From an uncultured Gemmatimonadales bacterium (GTDB taxonomy: Bacteria; Gemmatimonadota; Gemmatimonadetes; Gemmatimonadales; GWC2-71-9), in the NCBI GenBank assembly GCA_963771275.1, contig CAVYSW010000003.1, positions 640,001 to 704,000 of the forward strand: a stretch of DNA of 64,000 bases. The letters are read 5' to 3'. The translations under genes and the position numbers were made by a program. Positions 4,697 through 12,615 of the stretch are shown piece after piece (position 1 is the first letter of the stretch; every line of letters begins with the position of its first letter). The notes under the pieces were generated by a model that was not told the DNA's origin, made no database searches, and was given only the letters and a program-made list of their open reading frames with translations.

Positions 4697-6106
4697 TCAG
4701 AACGCGAGCCAGAGCAACATGTATAGCGTGTTGTTGTCGCTCGCCGAGCGGCCGCTCCCGTCGTAGTCGGTGCCCGCCCCGTTGAACTTGCTGTACGCCA
4801 CGTACTGCAGCGTGACGTGCGTGTTGAGCCAGGGGGAGTATTCCAGCTCGCCGATGAAGCCCCGGCTGTCGGGCATCCCGACCGCGCTGCCCACGACGGG
4901 ATCGGGCGCGTACAGGGTCGCGTCGCCGTCACCGGTCGTCTGGAAGTAGCCGAGCGTGAGGCCGATGCCGCCATTCAGCAGATACGACCCGTCCGCCCGG
5001 AACGCCCGCAGCGCGTTCGTGGGATTGGCCGATCCGCCGGCGTCGAACGTCGCGTCGAGGGCCTGTTTCTCGTGGATGTAGGTGGCGTGCCCGAGCATCG
5101 TCCCGGGACCGGCGGGCAGCTCGAACTGCCCGTCGACCGCCACGTCGGTGTACGTGTCGCGCAGGCCCTGCACGCCCGTCGGGTAGCGGCTGGCGCGGAG
5201 ACCGTAGGTGCCCGCCATGGCGTAGAGCTTGCCGAAGTTGCGCTGCAGCGCGACGCGCCAGTACGGCGCCACGCCGTTCAGGGTGCCCTCGGCGGTCGCG
5301 TCGGGCGGGTTCGGCCCGCCCTGCGGCGCCGAGCGGTACACGCTGAACTCCGTGTAGAGCAGGTCGGCCCACAGCGCGTACGCGCCCAGCCCGGCCGACG
5401 CCTGGGCCAGCGCGCCGTCGATCTGCAAGCCCGCGGTCGGCGCCGGGGCGACCGGCGACGCGGCGTAGGGGAAGCCCCACGCGGCCGTCGTGTTCCAGAC
5501 GTCCTGGACGGTCGGGTTGTTGTTGAGCGTCAGGCCGTAGAGCACCGACTGCGAGCCCAGGTGTCCCTGGCGCGCGTACCGGATGTCCACGTTGTCGATG
5601 CCGAGCGAGCCGTCCGTCCCGGCATAAGTGAGCTGCACGAACGCGCCGAGGTTCGGGGTCACGGCGCCCCCGAGGAAGACGCTCAGCTGGTCGGGCATCG
5701 CCACGTTCCCGTTCTGCGTGCCCGGCACTTCGTTCTTGAGCGACGTGAACGAGGCCTCGACCATCGCCGACGGCGGCGGCAGCTCCGGCAGGCGGAGCCG
5801 CGGCCGGGATTCTCCAGCCGTGATCGTCTTGCCGGTCGTCAGCGTATAGCCGGCGAGCTTGAACCGTCGCCCGAACGCCGTGAGCCGCGGGAAGCTCGAG
5901 TGGCACACGTTGCAGCCGAGCCCCGTCTGGCGCGCGAAGCTCGGGATCTTCTCGTCGCCCGTCGAGGCGCCGCGCACGTGCCCGTAGTCGCGCACGTAGC
6001 GCCGCGCCGCCTCCCGGACGCTGGTGCCTTCGGCGAACGCCCTGGCGGCGGAGCAGAGGAAGACGGCGAGGAATCCGATGAGGACCAGAGACCGACGCGC
6101 GACCAT
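4697..6106 (-). CDS. cyc2: Cyc2-like fused monoheme cytochrome c/outer-membrane porin
   Basis: Signal peptide, then IPSFARQTGLGCNVCHSSFPRLTAFGRRFKLAGY (single CxxCH), beta-strand-rich body, and C-terminal NNTLYMLLWLAF ending in Phe. Confidence 0.82.
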   Translation of the reverse strand: MVARRSLVLIGFLAVFLCSAARAFAEGTSVREAARRYVRDYGHVRGASTGDEKIPSFARQTGLGCNVCHSSFPRLTAFGRRFKLAGYTLTTGKTITAGESRPRLRLPELPPPSAMVEASFTSLKNEVPGTQNGNVAMPDQLSVFLGGAVTPNLGAFVQLTYAGTDGSLGIDNVDIRYARQGHLGSQSVLYGLTLNNNPTVQDVWNTTAAWGFPYAASPVAPAPTAGLQIDGALAQASAGLGAYALWADLLYTEFSVYRSAPQGGPNPPDATAEGTLNGVAPYWRVALQRNFGKLYAMAGTYGLRASRYPTGVQGLRDTYTDVAVDGQFELPAGPGTMLGHATYIHEKQALDATFDAGGSANPTNALRAFRADGSYLLNGGIGLTLGYFQTTGDGDATLYAPDPVVGSAVGMPDSRGFIGELEYSPWLNTHVTLQYVAYSKFNGAGTDYDGSGRSASDNNTLYMLLWLAF

Positions 6107-6251: not shown

Positions 6252-6620
6252 CTACCGGGAATCCGGCAGCACCATCACCTCCACGTGCGACGGGTAGCGC
6301 CCGGTGCGGTACACCCGGTGCGTTTGCTCCCGGTAGGCCTCGGCCGTCGCCAGGAAGATGTTGTCCACCCACGTCTGCGGGTTGCGGTCGTACAGCGGGA
6401 ACCACGTGCTCTGCACCTGCACCATGATGCGGTGCCCCCGCTGGAAGCGATACAGCTGCTGGTGCAGATCCACCGTGTACGACTCGACGACGCCGGCCGG
6501 GACCGGCTCGGGGCGCTCGAAGCTCTTGCGGTAGCGCCCGCGGAGCACGTCGCCCGCGACCATCAGCTCGTAGCCGCCCATGGCGGGGGGGGCCGGCACG
6601 CTGTCCGACAGACGTCTATC
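6252..6620 (-). pseudogene. Orphan duplicate of the 3' end of the CocE/NonD hydrolase gene
   Basis: PAMGGYELMVAGDVLRGRYRKSFERPE...YPSHVEVMV is near-identical to the C-terminus of 9735..11579; the DNA aligns at a 3480-nt offset. Confidence 0.9.
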
Positions 6621-7186
6621 CATCGCTCAAGCCCGCCTGCCGACGCAAGCGAGCTGCCTCGCCTGAGCAGTCGTCGCAGCTGTCTCAGGTCGCGCGGTCC
6701 AAGCACGCCACCGATGGCAAAGCGCACTATGCCCGCCGTGTCGATCAACAGCGTGGCCGGGATTCCCGTCACGCCCAACTGATCCCTTAGCTTGGTCGCA
6801 TGCACCACCCCAGCATACTCAATGCCTCGTTGGTTCCGAAGAGGATGGCCCGGATGGGTTGGCGTGAGGGACACCGCAAGTACGCGGATACCGCCGCGCA
6901 CATCGTTGGCGAGGGCCAACCACGCTGGCAACTGCTTCGAACACCACGCGCAGCCCTCGCTGAAGATTAGGATCAACGAACCGGTGACAGAGATCCGAGC
7001 CGAGGCACCGCTGGTCGGGTCGGTCCCAAAGAGGGTCAAGGAATCGACCGCGCGCCCGCGAGAGGCCAAGGTCGCCCCGTGTCTCCCAATAGTCCCCGAC
7101 AACTCCAGCGCGGTGAACGCCAAGTATCCGACCACAACCGCAAGGCCAATACCGGCCACGTCGGCGACTATTCGGCGCCGGCTCAT
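6563..7186 (-). CDS. Membrane-anchored TlpA/thioredoxin-like thiol-disulfide oxidoreductase
   Basis: N-terminal TM helix, FSEGCAWC (CxxC) and GIPATLLIDTAGIVR cis-Pro loop. The C-terminal tail runs into the CocE relic. Confidence 0.8.
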   Translation of the reverse strand: MSRRRIVADVAGIGLAVVVGYLAFTALELSGTIGRHGATLASRGRAVDSLTLFGTDPTSGASARISVTGSLILIFSEGCAWCSKQLPAWLALANDVRGGIRVLAVSLTPTHPGHPLRNQRGIEYAGVVHATKLRDQLGVTGIPATLLIDTAGIVRFAIGGVLGPRDLRQLRRLLRRGSSLASAGGLERWIDVCRTACRPPPPWAATS

Positions 7187-8268
7187 CGTTTCGATTCGTC
7201 CAGCTGGCGGCGGAGGTCCAGCACCATTGGTTCCGGATCATGGACTCCGACATACAGGTGGCTACCGTCCTCGGAAGCTGCCACTGCTGAGATCGGACGG
7301 CGGAGATCGATCTCCCGCCTGAACCCGCGGTTCCAGTCATAGAATTGGAGCTTGTGAACCCCAGGTGCGCTAGCGCCGAGTACCTGGGTGCCCTTGCAAC
7401 CGCAGTACCCCACCCACACTCCATCCTCGGTCGCAGCAATGGCAACTGCGAAGGCAAGATCCGAGTTCTGCAGGGCAAACATCGTAACGCCAGCGCCTGT
7501 CAGCGTTCGCGGGAACCCGATTCGGTCGGGCGTTTTGAAGCGGTGGATGGTTCTTAAGGCGTGGATGTCGATCACTTGGAGTTCTGGCGCGTACTTGAAT
7601 GCAAGCGCCAGTTTCGACCGATCCGGTGAAAGCGCGATGAGGTACTCGTTTGCCTGCATGAAGGCTTGGGCTTCTACGTCCTCGCGGCCGTACGGTGGAA
7701 TGCCTGCGAAGCGATTCGGCCCGCGCATTTGAGAATCGGACACCAGCACCAACGCCCTGTCGAATAGGAGCCCACCGGCCACCAGCCCTTGGTCGGTCCA
7801 GAACGGATCTGTGACGATCGCAGTCCGCGCGAGCCTAATGGTCTCCCGGTATGTAGGAGCAGGATCGAGATCGAACCGAGTGAACTGGCGGGGGTTGAAG
7901 TCGTAGACCCAGATGTGAGCCTTGGGGCCAATGCCGCGGATGACCTCGTGAGGTGCGAGGAGTTCACCGGGTCCCCGGCCCGGTTCCCCGAAGACGGCGG
8001 TTACAGAGCCATCGGTCAAGTCGATGAGCGACACGAATGGGGGGCCATAGCCATCCAGGACCACCAAGACCGAATCACCCAATAGCTCGAGATCTGCGAT
8101 CCGACCCCATGTCCGTGGCGTGAGATCTCGGGCGATATCGTAGTCAAAGCTCGTGTCCGACGAGGAAGGCGCACCGGGCTCATGTGAGGCGCGATCCACG
8201 GACTGTTCGCCCGCACATCCCACTAGGAGGATGAACGTCAACACGGAAAACCCAAGGTGATTGCGCAG
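7183..8268 (-). CDS. 6-bladed beta-propeller (TolB-like/BF3164-like) lipoprotein
   Basis: Lipobox LVGC, FGEPGRGPGEL and IWVYD motifs, blade-like repeats. Probable CTG start at 8268 after GAGGT gives MRNHLGFSVLTFILLVGC (ORF track start 8244). Confidence 0.75.
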   Translation of the reverse strand: MRNHLGFSVLTFILLVGCAGEQSVDRASHEPGAPSSSDTSFDYDIARDLTPRTWGRIADLELLGDSVLVVLDGYGPPFVSLIDLTDGSVTAVFGEPGRGPGELLAPHEVIRGIGPKAHIWVYDFNPRQFTRFDLDPAPTYRETIRLARTAIVTDPFWTDQGLVAGGLLFDRALVLVSDSQMRGPNRFAGIPPYGREDVEAQAFMQANEYLIALSPDRSKLALAFKYAPELQVIDIHALRTIHRFKTPDRIGFPRTLTGAGVTMFALQNSDLAFAVAIAATEDGVWVGYCGCKGTQVLGASAPGVHKLQFYDWNRGFRREIDLRRPISAVAASEDGSHLYVGVHDPEPMVLDLRRQLDESKR

Positions 8269-8343
8269 AACGCACCTCGTGTGCGGGAATCGAGTTGTGC
8301 GGACAGCTCTGGCGGCGTCCCGGGAGGGACGCCGCCCGTGGGA

Positions 8344-8556
8344 CTAGCCACCGTCGGGAATGAAGATCCATGCTGAGTTGTCTATGTGGCACCATTGCGT
8401 CGTTCCAGGACCGCCCGGGCCGCCGGTCTCGCAGTCGTACCAGCACTTCTCCGTGCTGCTCGAGCACTGCCACCCGCCGTCGGCGTACACTGGGACGGCG
8501 GCCAGACTGAAGCCGCCAGCCAGGGCGAGACAGAGCACTCCAGTTCGCTTCCACAC
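8344..8556 (-). CDS. Small secreted Cys/Trp-rich peptide, copy A (70 aa)
   Basis: Signal peptide ending VPVYA; mature DGGWQCSSSTEKCWYDCETGGPGGPGTTQWCHIDNSAWIFIPDGG; AGGGGG RBS; paralog upstream. Confidence 0.85.
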   Translation of the reverse strand: MWKRTGVLCLALAGGFSLAAVPVYADGGWQCSSSTEKCWYDCETGGPGGPGTTQWCHIDNSAWIFIPDGG

Positions 8557-8595
8557 TGAAACACCCCCTGGGCGTGATAAGTCGTAGATCTTCCG

Positions 8596-8877
8596 TCAGC
8601 TGTCGCTGAAGCGTTCCAAACTAATGGCAGGCCACAGCTGCTGAGCCGCTGGCCTGGCAACTAAACCGCCATCGGGAATGAACTCCCAGGACATGTTTCC
8701 CAACCAGCACCAATCTGTTGTTCCCGGTCCACCCGGGCCCCCGGTCTGGCAGTCGAACCAGCACTTCTCCGTGCTGGATCGGCACTCCCAACCGCCGCCA
8801 TCGGCGTACGCCGGGACGGCAGCTACTGTGAAGCCAGCAAGCAGGGCAAGACAGAGCACTCCGATTCGGGTCCGCAT
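8596..8877 (-). CDS. Small secreted Cys/Trp-rich peptide, copy B (93 aa, C-terminally extended)
   Basis: MRTRIGVLCLALLAGFTVAAVPAYA-DGGGWECRSSTEKCWFDCQTGGPGGPGTTDWCWLGNMSWEFIPDGG plus a 22-aa tail; same Cys spacing as copy A. Confidence 0.85.
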   Translation of the reverse strand: MRTRIGVLCLALLAGFTVAAVPAYADGGGWECRSSTEKCWFDCQTGGPGGPGTTDWCWLGNMSWEFIPDGGLVARPAAQQLWPAISLERFSDS

Positions 8878-9048
8878 CGAGACGCCCCCCCCGCGATTCG
8901 GTTGCCGAGTTCCAAACTGGGCCGCTCGGCCTCGAAGGTCCCACCGCCCGCAACGTCGCGGCGGCCGCATGGCGCTGACTGCCCGAAGACTGTGGATCGC
9001 ATCGCCGCCGCACAAGCGCCCTTGTTGTCGACTTTCGGGCGAATCGTG

Positions 9049-9459
9049 TCATTCTTCGGGCACGCTTCTACCTCCAGACGTGCCGTTCCTTGGCTCCACC
9101 CGCCGGCGGTACTGGACTGGACTCATCCCCAGCAAGCGGTGGAACCAGCGTCGGCAGCTCCACTCGCTGCCGAAGCCCGCTTCCGTCACGATCTCCGCGA
9201 TCGCGTGCTCTTTCTCGCGCAGGAGGCGTGCGGCGTGCGCGACTCGGCGCCGGGCGAGCCACACGGAGAACGGCTCCCCAACCCGCTCCCCGAAGAAGCG
9301 CGAGAAGTACCGGGGCTCGAGATGCGCGAGCCCGGCGGCGGTCTCGAGCGGGATCTGTTCCGCAAGATGGGCGTCCACGTAGTCCCGCACCTTGTGGAGG
9401 CGGTCGTAGTAGTCGAAGGCGCGTTCGCCCTCGTGGACATAGTGCCGGGCGGAGTCCAT
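9049..9459 (-). CDS. Stand-alone AraC-family HTH regulator
   Basis: YVDAHLAEQIPLETAAGLAHLEPRYFSRFF...AGFGSE...GMSPVQYRR double HTH; GGAGA RBS. Confidence 0.88.
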   Translation of the reverse strand: MDSARHYVHEGERAFDYYDRLHKVRDYVDAHLAEQIPLETAAGLAHLEPRYFSRFFGERVGEPFSVWLARRRVAHAARLLREKEHAIAEIVTEAGFGSEWSCRRWFHRLLGMSPVQYRRRVEPRNGTSGGRSVPEE

Positions 9460-9734: not shown

Positions 9735-11579
9735 TCAGGAGTTGCCCACCACCATGACCTCCACCCGCGACGGATACCGCGCCGTTCGATACACCCGGTG
9801 GGTCTGCGCCCGATACGCCTCTGGCGTGGCGAGGAAGATGTTGTCCACCCAGGTCTGCGGGTTCCGGTCGTAGAGCGGGAACCAGGTGCTCTGCACCTGC
9901 ACCATGATCCGGTGGCCCCGTTGGAAGCGGTAGAGCTGCTGGTGCAGGTCTACGGTGTACGATTCGACGGCGCCGGCCGGGATCCACTCGGGGCGCTCGA
10001 AGCTCTTCCGGTAGCGCCCTCGCAGCACGTCGCCGGCGACCATCAATTCGTAGCCGCCCATGGCCGGCCGGTCGGGCAGGCTGTCCGGGTAGACGTCGAT
10101 GAGCTTCACGACCCAATCGGCGTCGCTGCCGGTGGTCGAGGCAAACAGCCGGCCGGTGATGTCCCCGGCCACCGTGACCTCCTCGTCGAGCGGCGCGGTC
10201 TGCCAGGTCAATACGTCGGGCCGGTCGTCCACGAAGCGCTGGTCCTCGGTCATCCACGGCGCCCAGCGCGAGCCCGGACCGTAGGTCAGCTCGACCGGAC
10301 GCGGCCGGTACGGCACCGGATGGGCCGGATCCGACACGTACTGGTCGAAGCCCGCCGTATCGGTGGGCGGGTCGAACGCCAGCCGACCACCGGAAAGCAG
10401 GTACAGGTCGTGCCGCACGGCGTCCCGGGGCGGCCACGCGTCGAAGCTCCGCCAGCGGTTGTCGCCCGACTCGAACAGCTCAGCCTCCGCGAACTTCCCA
10501 TCGCCCTTTCCTTTAAGCCAATAGGCGAACCACGCCCCCTGGATGCGCGCGCGGAACTCGTCCGCCGTGTTGCTGTCGAACCGCACGTTCCCGAGCTGGT
10601 CGCCGCCGGCCTGCGCCCACTGCCCGTGGCTCCATGGACCCATCACGAAGTAATTGATCCCGGCGGTGTCGTGCCGCTCGAGCGCGGCATAGGTCGCCAT
10701 CGGGCCATACAGGTCCTCCTGGTCCCACCAGCCGCCCACCGTGAGCGTCGGGACGCGGACGCTCGTGAGGTACGTGGTGAGCGCCTGGCGCTGCCAGAAC
10801 GCGTCGTACGCCGGGTGCGCCACGAAGTTGCGCCACGTCGGGAAGCGCATCGCGCCCACCGCCTCGGCGAGGGCACCGAGCGTCGGGTAGGAGAGGTACC
10901 AGTCGAACGTATCGTACCGGGTGGTACGCGGGCCCGTGCTCTCGTCCGCCGTCTCTTCCATCATCCACGTGTACTCCAGCCCGTAGGCGAGCCGGAACGC
11001 GCCCTGATGGAAGAAGTCGTCGCCCATCCAGGTATCGGTCATCGGCGCCTGCGGCGAGATCGCCCTGAGCGCGGGATGCGGGTCGATGCCGGCCATCGCG
11101 GTGAGCCAGCCGGGATACGAGATCCCCACCACGCCGACCCGCCCGTTGTTGCGCGGCACGTGTTTGACCAGCCAGTCGATCGTGTCGTACGTGTCGGTGC
11201 TCTCGTCCACTCCCCTGGGGTCGGCCGGGTCGTGCGGCGGCCGGTTCATGACGAACTCACCTTCAGACCGGTAGCGGCCGCGGATGTCCTGGATCACGAA
11301 CACGTACCCGTCCGCAATCAGCTCCTTGAACGCGACCAGGAAGCGCGGCGTCCCCGCCCACCCCCGCGTGCCGTACGGCGTGCGGAGCATCAGAATGGGA
11401 AGCGGCTCGGTGGCGCCCTTGGGCGCGAGGATCACCGTGAAGAGCTGCGCGCCGTCGCGCATCGGGATCATCGCCTCCGTGACGTTGAACGCGGCGGACG
11501 GCGCCTGGGCGGCTCCGTAGCCCGGTGGCAGGCCAAGACCGAGGACGAGGAACAGCACGAGCGAAACCGAGCGGGACAT
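9735..11579 (-). CDS. CocE/NonD family hydrolase (alpha-amino acid ester hydrolase-like)
   Basis: Signal peptide, MRDGAQL, RTPYG, QDIRGRYRSEG, GISYPG nucleophile and GPWSHG. Confidence 0.93.
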   Translation of the reverse strand: MSRSVSLVLFLVLGLGLPPGYGAAQAPSAAFNVTEAMIPMRDGAQLFTVILAPKGATEPLPILMLRTPYGTRGWAGTPRFLVAFKELIADGYVFVIQDIRGRYRSEGEFVMNRPPHDPADPRGVDESTDTYDTIDWLVKHVPRNNGRVGVVGISYPGWLTAMAGIDPHPALRAISPQAPMTDTWMGDDFFHQGAFRLAYGLEYTWMMEETADESTGPRTTRYDTFDWYLSYPTLGALAEAVGAMRFPTWRNFVAHPAYDAFWQRQALTTYLTSVRVPTLTVGGWWDQEDLYGPMATYAALERHDTAGINYFVMGPWSHGQWAQAGGDQLGNVRFDSNTADEFRARIQGAWFAYWLKGKGDGKFAEAELFESGDNRWRSFDAWPPRDAVRHDLYLLSGGRLAFDPPTDTAGFDQYVSDPAHPVPYRPRPVELTYGPGSRWAPWMTEDQRFVDDRPDVLTWQTAPLDEEVTVAGDITGRLFASTTGSDADWVVKLIDVYPDSLPDRPAMGGYELMVAGDVLRGRYRKSFERPEWIPAGAVESYTVDLHQQLYRFQRGHRIMVQVQSTWFPLYDRNPQTWVDNIFLATPEAYRAQTHRVYRTARYPSRVEVMVVGNS

Positions 11580-11757
11580 GTCACGACTCCATGGCGCAGC
11601 GAGCGCACCTGATTCCACCGGAGCGCAGCCGGGGTATGCGGGAACGGTCGAGATTGGTTGGGCAAGGTACGGCGCCCGGGCCCGGGACGCCACGTGCCGC
11701 GGGCTCGGTGCCGGCGGGTATCTTTGGACGAGGAGAGGATGAGGCCCTCCACACCGC

Positions 11758-12615
11758 ATGAGACGTCGAACGCGCGTATTCCTGTATCTGGTGCTCGCCA
11801 TCGGCGCGCTGCTCGCGGCCGCGGGTGTCTGGCAGTGGCTCACGTGGCCAGACGTCGCCGCGTTGGCTGAGCACCCGCCCAAGACCACCGCGTTCATCGA
11901 GGCCTACAAGGCGCGCCAGCGTGCGGCCGGCAAGTCCACGGGCGTGTCCTGGCAATGGGTGCCGTGGTCGAGCATCTCGCCCCACTTGAAGCGCGCCGCG
12001 GTCTCGGGCGAGGACATGGAGTTCTTCTTCCACCGGGGCTTCTCGACCGCCGAGCTGAAGGCGGCGCTCAAAGCCGCCGTGGAGGAAGGGAAGCCGCTCC
12101 GCGGCGCGTCCACCATCACGCAGCAGCTCGCCAAGAACCTGTGGCTCTCGCCGTCCCGCAATCCGTGGCGCAAGGTCAAGGAGGCGCTGCTCACCCGCTC
12201 GCTGGAGCGGCACCTCACAAAGCGGCGGATTCTCGAGCTGTACCTCAACGTGGTCGAGTTCGGGCCGGGCGTGTACGGCGCCGAAGCCGCCGCGCGCACG
12301 TTCTTCGGCGAGCCGGCGAGCGCGCTCACGGACCATGAAGCCGCGATGTTGGCCGCGGGACTGCCGCGCCCGTCCACGTGGCATCCGGGCCGGACGACGA
12401 GCGGCTATCTCGCTTACGTATCCGAAATCGAACGTCGCATGGCCATGGCCACGTTCATCTGGCGCTACATCGGCGAGACCGCGCCCGTGCTCGACTCGCT
12501 GCGGGCGCTGGACTCGCTGCGGGTGGTGGACTCGCTGCGGGTGGTGGACTCGCTGCGGGTGCAGGATTCGCTGCGGGTGCAGGATTCGCTGGTGATTCAC
12601 GATTCGGTGATGTAG
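11758..12615 (+). CDS. mtgA: Monofunctional peptidoglycan transglycosylase
   Basis: TM anchor, GEDMEFFFHRG, RGASTITQQLAKNL, RKVKE and KRRILELYLNVVEFG GT51 motifs. Confidence 0.92.
   Translation: MRRRTRVFLYLVLAIGALLAAAGVWQWLTWPDVAALAEHPPKTTAFIEAYKARQRAAGKSTGVSWQWVPWSSISPHLKRAAVSGEDMEFFFHRGFSTAELKAALKAAVEEGKPLRGASTITQQLAKNLWLSPSRNPWRKVKEALLTRSLERHLTKRRILELYLNVVEFGPGVYGAEAAARTFFGEPASALTDHEAAMLAAGLPRPSTWHPGRTTSGYLAYVSEIERRMAMATFIWRYIGETAPVLDSLRALDSLRVVDSLRVVDSLRVQDSLRVQDSLVIHDSVM
12487..12612 (+). repeat. 18-bp coding tandem repeat (about 7 units, xxDSLR)
   Basis: gtggtggactcgctgcgg-like units encode VLDSLRALDSLRVVDSLRVVDSLRVQDSLRVQDSLVIHDSVM. Confidence 0.95.

Follow-up and report, generated by a model that had tools for sequence, protein, structure and literature searches.

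The window analysed here is a stretch of 64,000 nucleotides from the genome of an uncultured Gemmatimonadales bacterium, and the element under study is a cassette of five genes within it, which encodes a regulator of the AraC type, two small cysteine-rich exported peptides, a beta-propeller protein and a thioredoxin-fold protein (Table 1; all coordinates without a contig or locus label are window positions, and base composition and repeats were computed on the window DNA). It is noted that a preliminary description of this DNA had placed five co-oriented genes at 6563-9459, and all five open reading frames (ORFs) are indeed arranged head to tail on the minus strand. The start codon of the thioredoxin gene overlaps the stop codon of the propeller gene in the sequence ATGA at 7183-7186, so that the propeller is coupled to a membrane-anchored CAWC thioredoxin just as had been described. 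The same holds for the base composition, which had been called less biased to guanine plus cytosine (GC) than that of the flanks: the GC content is 0.61-0.66 over 6501-9000 and 0.67-0.74 in the surroundings, while the GC content at third codon positions (GC3) is 0.67-0.77 in the genes of the two peptides, the propeller and the thioredoxin, as compared with 0.88-0.96 in the neighbouring genes, the AraC gene being intermediate with 0.84. By base composition, the cassette block is therefore a foreign-looking island. As had also been stated, no enzyme for ribosomally synthesised and post-translationally modified peptides (RiPPs) and no transporter is present, the domains that can be recognised in the five proteins being HTH_18, TolB_like and weak thioredoxin-fold matches only.

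Table 1. Genes of the cassette and the direct repeat that brackets it (window positions; HTH, helix-turn-helix; aa, amino acids).
Feature	Position	Strand	Description
AraC/XylS-type HTH regulator, stand-alone	9049-9459	-	136 aa, Pfam HTH_18
Peptide precursor 1	8596-8877	-	93 aa from ATG; 25-aa signal + 46-aa core + 22-aa tail
Peptide precursor 2	8344-8556	-	70 aa, GTG start; 25-aa signal + 45-aa mature core
NHL-type six-bladed beta-propeller (predicted), probable lipoprotein (LLVGC)	7183-8244	-	353 aa
Membrane-anchored, periplasm-facing thioredoxin-fold protein (predicted)	6563-7186	-	207 aa; CAWC at 79-82, cis-Pro at 143
Direct-repeat copy 1	6267-6619		displaced 3'-end fragment of CocE/NonD hydrolase gene; fragment ORF 6252-6623 (-)
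Direct-repeat copy 2	9747-10100		3' end of intact CocE/NonD hydrolase gene 9735-11897 (-)

Consider first the two peptides. Each precursor begins with a basic n-region and a hydrophobic core, followed by AVPAYA in peptide 1 and AVPVYA in peptide 2, and the ends AYA and VYA fit the -3/-1 rule of signal peptidase I when the sequences are read without a predictor. In the mature part both share the arrangement C-x6-C-x3-C-x13-C and the segment GGPGGPG, with five Trp residues in the core of peptide 1 and four in peptide 2, and thus the pair of paralogous, signal-bearing precursors with a four-cysteine core that had been proposed can be read directly in both sequences. In mature form they are anionic, the net charge being -5. 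Behind the two genes lies a tandem duplication, in which the DNA repeats D2/D3 are 74-77% identical and the proteins 73% identical; no further copy of the peptide was found in the window's genome. The stop codon TAG of peptide 2 is replaced by TTA in peptide 1, which adds 22 residues, and since this tail is absent from all homologues it would be a derived read-through. In the mature region the ratio of nonsynonymous to synonymous divergence (dN/dS) between the paralogues is 0.23, with dS about 1.0, and this purifying selection implies that both peptides have been kept as coding genes.

Neither peptide matches any family of Pfam or NCBIfam, their exact sequences are absent from a collection of 15 billion proteins, and when proteins of 38-123 aa were searched by word index with peptide 2, no candidate emerged. 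Six matches at E<=1e-3 were obtained when 1.84 billion representatives were searched with a profile built from three mature cores; five of them are true members with 63-74 aa, a signal-like N-terminus and all four cysteines, and the sixth is an unrelated repeat protein. The family then follows the pattern C-x6/7-C-x3-C-x7/12/13-C around a core of C[WYQ]Y[DN]C[DE]TGxP, with an acidic tail at most of the C-termini and with no His or Met conserved. The cysteine spacing, which had been taken as invariant, is thus kept in part: the four cysteines and the C-x3-C pair are retained, and the outer spacings vary. Among 401 sampled genomes of the phylum, the carriers of the family are the window's genome and one other (G094), and a scan of the species genomes of GTDB adds two Gemmatimonadota metagenome-assembled genomes, L044 and its near-copy L045. 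It should be mentioned that a scan of the 401 genomes with a single peptide gave 3 further matches at E<=1e-3, of which G094 alone is real, L009 being a chance match and L008 containing two internal stops. The profile scan of the same genomes gave four additional weak matches that are wrong-frame artefacts, and the 4 loci given by a pattern scan of metagenomes are a chance match that lies in an unrelated frame and lacks both a signal and the cysteine pattern. From the sequence evidence, then, the peptide family is new, real and very rare.

In the AlphaFold model, peptide 2 forms four short beta strands, with a predicted local distance difference test score (pLDDT) of 80-86 over residues 31-60. 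It has no Foldseek match at E<=0.001 and none in VIA-wide at Z>=2, which is no proof of a new fold; a search of the ESM Atlas gave a top score of 0.84, to unnamed clusters, and is a lead only. The earlier statement that the peptide resembles no characterised family therefore stands, with no match in Pfam, in NCBIfam or among the folds of the PDB. By contrast, two ideas on the nature of the peptides have to be given up. One is that they are of the NVEALA type, which had been named for comparable loci of Bacteroidota: the NVEALA model (PF14055) has no match in the window peptides at E<=0.01, none in the whole genome at E<=0.1 and none in eight cysteine-rich peptides of relatives at E<=1. The other is that they are cyclised. 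The core had been described as both starting and ending with DGG, which fits the core of peptide 2; peptide 1 runs on past its DGG, and DGG is conserved at neither end across the family. With the ends not conserved, and with no His set in the propeller like that of the amidating lyase PAL (see below), head-to-tail cyclisation and C-terminal amidation from the DGG ends were both rejected.

Next, consider the propeller, the model of which has a pLDDT of 81.3 and a predicted template-modelling score (pTM) of 0.82. Among the Foldseek matches to this model seven-bladed WD40 chains dominate, with a template-modelling (TM) score of about 0.5. In the ranking of folds by VIA-wide, which is independent of Foldseek, the matches are the NHL domain of Brat (Z 23.8, root-mean-square deviation 3.5 over 266 aligned residues), PAL (3fw0, Z 23.2), SOQ1 (7djl, Z 20.2), the Bacteroides DUF4221 protein (3s9j, Z 20.0, 306 residues aligned), NHLRC2 (6gc1, Z 19.1) and Bacteroides BF0058 (4raa, Z 18.9, 283 residues aligned), with Mei-P26 and TRIM2 placed beside Brat and PAL. 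Moreover, a profile of 23 relatives of the propeller matches the NHL repeats of Thin, TRIM2 and TRIM71 with E values from 7e-14 to 1e-7. On the model, the propeller is of the NHL type and six-bladed, in agreement with the fold that had been proposed for it. To the Pfam family TolB_like (PF15869) the window protein scores 28.8 bits, which is short of the cut-off of 29.2 by 0.4, and of its aligned relatives 21/23 match TolB_like (best E 1e-29) and 10/23 match DUF5128 (PF17170). The conserved columns consist of G-x-x-G-x-G-P-x-E, two Asp, two Trp, and Gly and Pro residues, and the motif GxGPGEF is invariant or nearly so in the 23-row alignment, in which no His is invariant or nearly invariant and no catalytic-looking set is seen. 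PAL, the peptidyl-alpha-hydroxyglycine alpha-amidating lyase, carries a metal-binding His set in the centre of its propeller, and with no conserved His a PAL-like metal site in the present propeller is thus unlikely.

Apart from the lipobox cysteine, the propeller has as its only cysteines C281 and C283, which make up the CGC motif noticed before; in the model this motif follows the strand 275-280 and precedes a low-confidence stretch at 289-292. The two columns hold the only cysteines of 8 propellers of the wider clade, and the other 15 aligned rows have none there. Where the context is visible, a thioredoxin-like neighbour is found for 5/8 of the CxC propellers as against 0/15 of the cysteine-free ones (Fisher p 0.0017), with the groups defined post hoc, the rows being kin and the flanks extending to about 1.5 kb only. 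Since the thioredoxin-adjacent propellers of two loci, L059 and L066, have no cysteine in the mature part and so are counter-examples, the association of CxC with thioredoxin is a lead only. As to the claim that the propeller is a lipoprotein, it is to be weakened to a probable one, as read from the N-terminus. With the listed GTG start, the signal ahead of the lipobox has nine residues, none of which is basic; an in-frame CTG at 8268 would provide a normal lipoprotein signal, and a metagenomic relative that is 77% identical (P0002) has a conventional signal.

The thioredoxin-fold protein has an N-terminal hydrophobic anchor ahead of its CAWC, as can be read from the sequence. As a single sequence it gives weak family matches, to TraF, DsbE and TlpA, all far under the cut-off; for instance, with the curated models it scores 19.6 bits for DsbE (cut-off 123.15) and 16.9 bits for TlpA (cut-off 230). 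A profile of 5 homologues finds solved proteins that are TlpA-, ResA-, CcmG-, StoA- and Etrx-like, with E values from 1e-6 to 8e-3, and in the alignment of these homologues (A6) the first cysteine and the cis-Pro (Pro143) are invariant. In the cassette thioredoxin and its homologues, the dipeptides within CxxC are AW, QY, PY, GF and AY, which are not of the x-Pro type of TlpA and ResA and which we take to be closer to the type of DsbC and DsbG. By its predicted fold, anchor, CxxC and cis-Pro, the cassette protein is a TlpA/ResA/DsbE-like extracytoplasmic thioredoxin. Note also that the host has two VKOR genes, one DsbB-like gene, three DsbA-like genes and three DsbD/CcdA-like genes, the best of the last lying at C3:636974-637600, about 9 kb from the cassette. 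As the general disulfide machinery of the host is thus complete, the cassette thioredoxin is an addition to it.

The evidence that the peptide, the propeller and the thioredoxin belong together comes from the loci of the peptide homologues. In G094, the gene of a 63-aa homologue is followed by a propeller gene and then by that of a transmembrane-anchored CQYC thioredoxin. In L044 and L045, the genes of the peptide, the propeller and a transmembrane-anchored thioredoxin-like protein overlap each other by four bases, and these cassettes are located amid IS3-type transposase genes. Hence the order peptide, propeller, thioredoxin-like protein is found in 4/4 loci with readable context (the window, G094, L044 and L045), which represent three lineages. 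In addition, the propellers of the window, P0002, G094 and L044/L045 form one clade with a Shimodaira-Hasegawa-like approximate likelihood-ratio (SH-aLRT) support of 100 in a quick IQ-TREE search with 28 rows. The idea of a dedicated, conserved module is borne out in this way, with the peptide homologues keeping their four cysteines and with propeller and thioredoxin-like neighbours present in every readable locus. The AraC gene, which had been counted as a part of the system, is not upstream of the homologous cassettes, where a DUF6624 gene (G094) or transposase remnants (L044) are found instead; in L045, the only AraC-family gene is a distant one of 287 aa, about 4 kb off. The AraC gene is not part of the conserved module.

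The two partner families were also considered across the phylum. Propeller homologues occur in 64/401 genomes (E<=1e-5). Of 30 propeller loci taken for the neighbourhoods, the propeller was found again by tblastn in 25, and the other five (L028, L029, L032, L036 and L038) were dropped. A small ORF was counted as rule-positive if it has 45-149 aa, a 14-residue uncharged hydrophobic window with at least three cysteines behind it, and the same strand as the gene in question; in the window's genome, 7.72 Mb of strand contain 101 such ORFs, which gives a background of 0.013 per kb. Of the 25 propeller loci, 17 have a rule-positive ORF in the 1 kb upstream or the 0.8 kb downstream, and the number of such ORFs observed is 20 as compared with 0.54 expected. 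Among the eight loci without one, two are at contig ends and two have peptides that are visible by eye and fail the rule. Of the 15 thioredoxin loci outside the known trios that are best by E-value, 9/15 have a rule-positive ORF no more than 1.5 kb away and on the same strand, including all seven with the best hidden Markov model (HMM) E-values. The link of the thioredoxin to cysteine-rich exported peptides, which had been suggested from one locus, is thus strong across the phylum.

At these thioredoxin loci the gene order differs. It is thioredoxin, peptide, peptide in L058 and L064; thioredoxin, peptide, NHL propeller in L059; thioredoxin, propeller, peptide in L063; and propeller, peptide, peptide, thioredoxin in L066. 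In L060 and L062 the order is thioredoxin, peptide and then a Big_1+Kelch propeller lipoprotein (L060 4424-6427, plus strand; L062 1045-2988, minus strand), which stands in place of the NHL propeller, so that one type of propeller appears to have taken the place of the other. The peptides that adjoin the homologous thioredoxins have from 5 to 12 cysteines with widely different spacing. These varied orders imply that the peptide is the hub, drawing both partner families to it.

Based on these data, we propose the following model, which we favour tentatively. The cassette would produce two-disulfide mini-proteins exported by the Sec system, with the cassette thioredoxin handling their disulfides and the propeller binding them. 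Peptides of about 45 residues would be exported by Sec, with signal peptidase I cutting after AYA or VYA. The thioredoxin domain would face the periplasm and act on the peptides as an oxidase or isomerase, forming or correcting the two disulfides, and the propeller would serve as a platform on which the peptide is bound and held, the two proteins working as a split form of the fused thioredoxin (Trx)-NHL proteins NHLRC2 and SOQ1. In this propeller clade, disulfides may be shuttled by the lone CGC pair. The folded peptide would then act outside the cytoplasm, either in the periplasm or after release. A stronger form of the model, which we regard as possible and yet unlikely, is that the propeller and the thioredoxin are a split NHLRC2/SOQ1-like disulfide machine, with a relay through the CGC of the propeller, that matures hypervariable, enzyme-free mini-proteins and that is widespread and unpublished.

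Several observations weigh against the model. Most of the propeller-peptide pairs have no thioredoxin within 1.5 kb, and this, together with L058 and L064, which have no propeller, implies that the three parts are separable. About 16 of the about 20 propeller paralogues in the window's genome have no flagged peptide adjoining. The propellers of L059 and L066, free of cysteine in the mature part, imply that a CGC shuttle is not general. The thioredoxin-like partner at 7310-7804 of L044 and at 7310-7804 of L045 has CPWS in place of CxxC, and with this single active-site cysteine it could not donate a disulfide by itself. Moreover, the TlpA-, ResA-, CcmG-, StoA- and Etrx-like relatives of the cassette thioredoxin are mostly reductants rather than oxidases, and as the host has its own DsbA-like, VKOR, DsbB-like and DsbD/CcdA-like genes a dedicated enzyme is not obviously needed.

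It is helpful to compare the cassette with known systems. In Bacteroidales, small cysteine-rich NVEALA proteins are encoded beside TolB_like/DUF5128 propeller lipoproteins and thioredoxin-fold proteins. The present cassette is like those loci in having a propeller that is probably of the same superfamily, to judge by the TolB_like and DUF5128 matches of its relatives and by the fold matches to the Bacteroides structural-genomics propellers 3s9j and 4raa, and in combining an exported cysteine-rich ORF with a propeller and, optionally, a CxxC protein; it is unlike them in that its peptides are not NVEALA, in that the signal is a classical AxA one, and in that the phylum is another. In NHLRC2 of animals and SOQ1 of the plant thylakoid lumen, a Trx-like domain is fused to a six-bladed NHL propeller. 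The resemblance lies in a TlpA/DsbE-like thioredoxin fold beside an NHL propeller in an oxidising compartment, whereas in the cassette the two are separate, translationally coupled proteins with CAWC instead of CC(I/V)NC, and the gene of a cysteine-rich peptide is the constant third partner. As described in the report on NHLRC2 (PMC6107167), the Trx and NHL domains share one conserved cleft around the active-site cysteines and CC(I/V)NC is the defining motif of NHLRC2 and SOQ1; its authors saw no conserved neighbours in 7 bacterial genomes.

The N-terminal anchor, the CxxC and the cis-Pro loop are likewise those of TlpA, ResA, CcmG (DsbE) and StoA; the cassette thioredoxin differs from these in adjoining the gene of a cysteine-rich peptide and not cytochrome c or Sco/Cox genes. 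Class II bacteriocins are characterised by a double-glycine leader, an ATP-binding cassette (ABC) transporter and a small immunity protein. Thiol-disulfide oxidoreductases dedicated to bacteriocin clusters are described in two reports (PMC4919988, PMC6391423). In the clusters of pediocin PA-1 and sublancin 168, these proteins are PedC and BdbA/BdbB. As in these clusters, a small exported disulfide peptide is encoded here together with a thioredoxin-like accessory of its own. By contrast, the cassette has no double-glycine leader, no ABC transporter, no glycosyltransferase and no small membrane immunity protein, and it uses a Sec-type signal in a diderm, with a propeller as an extra partner and with an anionic peptide. 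Small exported cysteine-rich ORFs next to propeller lipoproteins and proteins of the thioredoxin fold are common in two phyla at least, yet in the literature searched no paper was found that describes the peptide-propeller-thioredoxin cassette or the NVEALA-propeller pattern.

The likeness to bacteriocin clusters brings us to the explanation that survives best beside the proposed model, although we consider it unlikely: the peptides would be released, Sec-dependent, unmodified mini-proteins of the bacteriocin type, the propeller lipoprotein would give immunity by sequestering them at the membrane, and the thioredoxin would do no more than secure their disulfides, as PedC does for pediocin and BdbA/BdbB for sublancin. 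Protection of the producer through sequestration at the membrane is known from lipoproteins of the LanI type. The gene arrangement is what would be expected, with the partner gene directly behind the structural gene and overlapping it by codons in L044/L045, with hypervariable peptides beside a more conserved partner, and with the peptide family and the propeller clade inherited together. The context is mobile, as indicated by the IS3 transposases at L044/L045 and by the low GC3 and flanking repeats in the window, and the many peptide-less propeller paralogues in the genome resemble orphan immunity genes. The dedicated thiol-disulfide oxidoreductases of published bacteriocin clusters (PMC4919988, PMC6391423) agree with this too. 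However, the anionic charge of the mature peptides and the lack of an outer-membrane export gene in the cassette, which has no lysis or ABC-transporter gene either, weaken the idea and make 'antimicrobial or signalling peptide' a guess. None of the five proteins matches a bacteriocin family, and PADLOC gave no match at E<=0.01. In addition, the peptide loci without a propeller (L058, L064) speak against immunity.

These loci also weaken a second explanation, in which the peptide would stay in the periplasm as a permanent subunit or plug of the propeller lipoprotein, the two chains making one envelope protein and the thioredoxin serving as its assembly factor. Several points speak for it: in a diderm, Sec alone reaches the periplasm only, and the cassette has no gene for a further export step; the cassette genes are closely coupled; and in L060 and L062 the NHL propeller is replaced by a Kelch propeller. 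We nevertheless hold it to be quite unlikely, for there are two peptide genes for one propeller in the window, the peptides are far more variable than the propellers, and most of the propeller paralogues in the genome lack a flagged peptide.

It is also conceivable that the TlpA-like thioredoxin keeps the cysteines of the peptide reduced and that this leaves the CxxxC peptide free to bind a metal or cofactor, the propeller being a carrier or receptor. It is known that TlpA reduces ScoI and CoxB and that ResA reduces apocytochrome c, and the nearest solved relatives of the thioredoxin are such proteins of the reductant type, TlpA, ResA and CcmG; the C-x3-C pair of the peptide and the three DsbD/CcdA-like electron importers of the host point in the same direction. 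Since His and Met are not conserved in the peptide family, since 5 to 12 cysteines with varied spacing fit disulfide-rich mini-proteins better than a defined metal site, and since the CxxC dipeptides differ from the x-Pro type of TlpA/ResA, this is very improbable. Finally, that there is no joint function, the small ORFs being unexpressed or decaying and unrelated envelope genes having been united by insertion, would agree with the lost stop codon of peptide 1, with the thioredoxin tail reaching into a repeat junction and with the lack of any promoter- or terminator-like consensus site that fits the operon, but can hardly be true in view of the purifying selection on the peptides, the trio kept in three lineages, the strong enrichment of cysteine-rich signal-bearing ORFs beside both partner families and the near-identical island in contigs of three other studies.

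Returning to the proposed model of Sec-exported mini-proteins handled by the thioredoxin and bound by the propeller, what the window adds is a very rare new peptide family, the co-inheritance of the peptide, the propeller clade and the thioredoxin in three lineages, a phylum-wide link of thioredoxin and peptide with a measured background, and the lone CGC pair of the propeller. If the joint action on the peptide is true, there would be a class of secreted disulfide mini-proteins that can do without RiPP enzymes and without a transporter of their own, a large group of DUF propellers would be accounted for, and a tractable bacterial analogue would be available of NHLRC2, a human disease gene, and of SOQ1, the clients of which are poorly understood. 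If the split relay machine is true, bacteria would have a new route to secreted peptides, invisible to genome miners, and the client chemistry of NHLRC2 and SOQ1 could be studied on a bacterial model. As a test case the window copy is compact, with five genes, two synthesisable paralogous peptides of 45 residues and the CGC pair as the only cysteines of the propeller outside the lipobox.

Now we turn to the regulator. The AraC protein matches Pfam HTH_18 with 67.7 bits (cut-off 33.6), and its matches to AraC-family models of NCBIfam are sub-threshold. It consists of the double HTH domain alone, which is the architecture of MarA and SoxS, with no ligand or dimerisation domain. This stand-alone regulator would probably drive the operon in this genome only. 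In the operon region, no sigma-70-like promoter was found, nothing in Rfam matches, and the sole terminator-like match lies on the wrong strand.

The cassette block is bracketed by the two copies of a 353-nt direct repeat with 85.6% identity. The fragment at copy 1 matches PepX_C of Pfam and CocE_NonD of NCBIfam. The distance to CocE/NonD orthologues is about the same for both copies, and between the copies there is no integrase and no transposase. The C-terminal residues of the thioredoxin, about 25 in number, reach into the repeat junction and are lacking in its homologues. An empty site was sought through the CocE/NonD orthologues of 20 relatives, among which none was found, with identity of at most 69% and no common downstream gene. 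Four public DNA runs, which belong to three further studies, have contigs in which the island is near-unchanged; one such contig, of 2985 nt, has 6 differences from it. In the public contigs there is no credible joint that skips the island, the joints seen having sides of 22-52 nt and probably arising from paralogues.

As to the other propellers of the window's genome (G000), 24 HMM-matching fragments correspond to about 20 NHL-type paralogues, of which the window copy alone has a thioredoxin beside it and four have a rule-positive peptide. It is observed separately that the paralogues form clusters at C3:751383-771710, with seven HMM matches, and at C3:1801442-1808594, with four, and that in both clusters together one paralogue alone adjoins a rule-positive cysteine-rich ORF. 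At C9:14044-15335, the propeller match that ranks second in the genome (E 7e-26) is spread over three overlapping frames and is probably a frameshifted copy.

Two further observations concern the neighbours of the island. At 4697-6106 on the minus strand, a 469-aa exported protein is encoded, which has no match in Pfam or NCBIfam, and which has CNVCH, a haem-c-like CxxCH, near the N-terminus and a C-terminus, ...LLWLAF, typical of outer-membrane beta-barrels; it may be a haem-bearing barrel, and the GC3 of 0.95 implies that its gene is native. On the other side of the island, the ORF at 11758-12615 on the plus strand terminates in tandem DSLRV(V/Q) repeats, and the overlapping ORF at 11581-12600 on the minus strand reads the same DNA as HPQR(I/V) repeats, the DNA at this gene end being a short tandem repeat.

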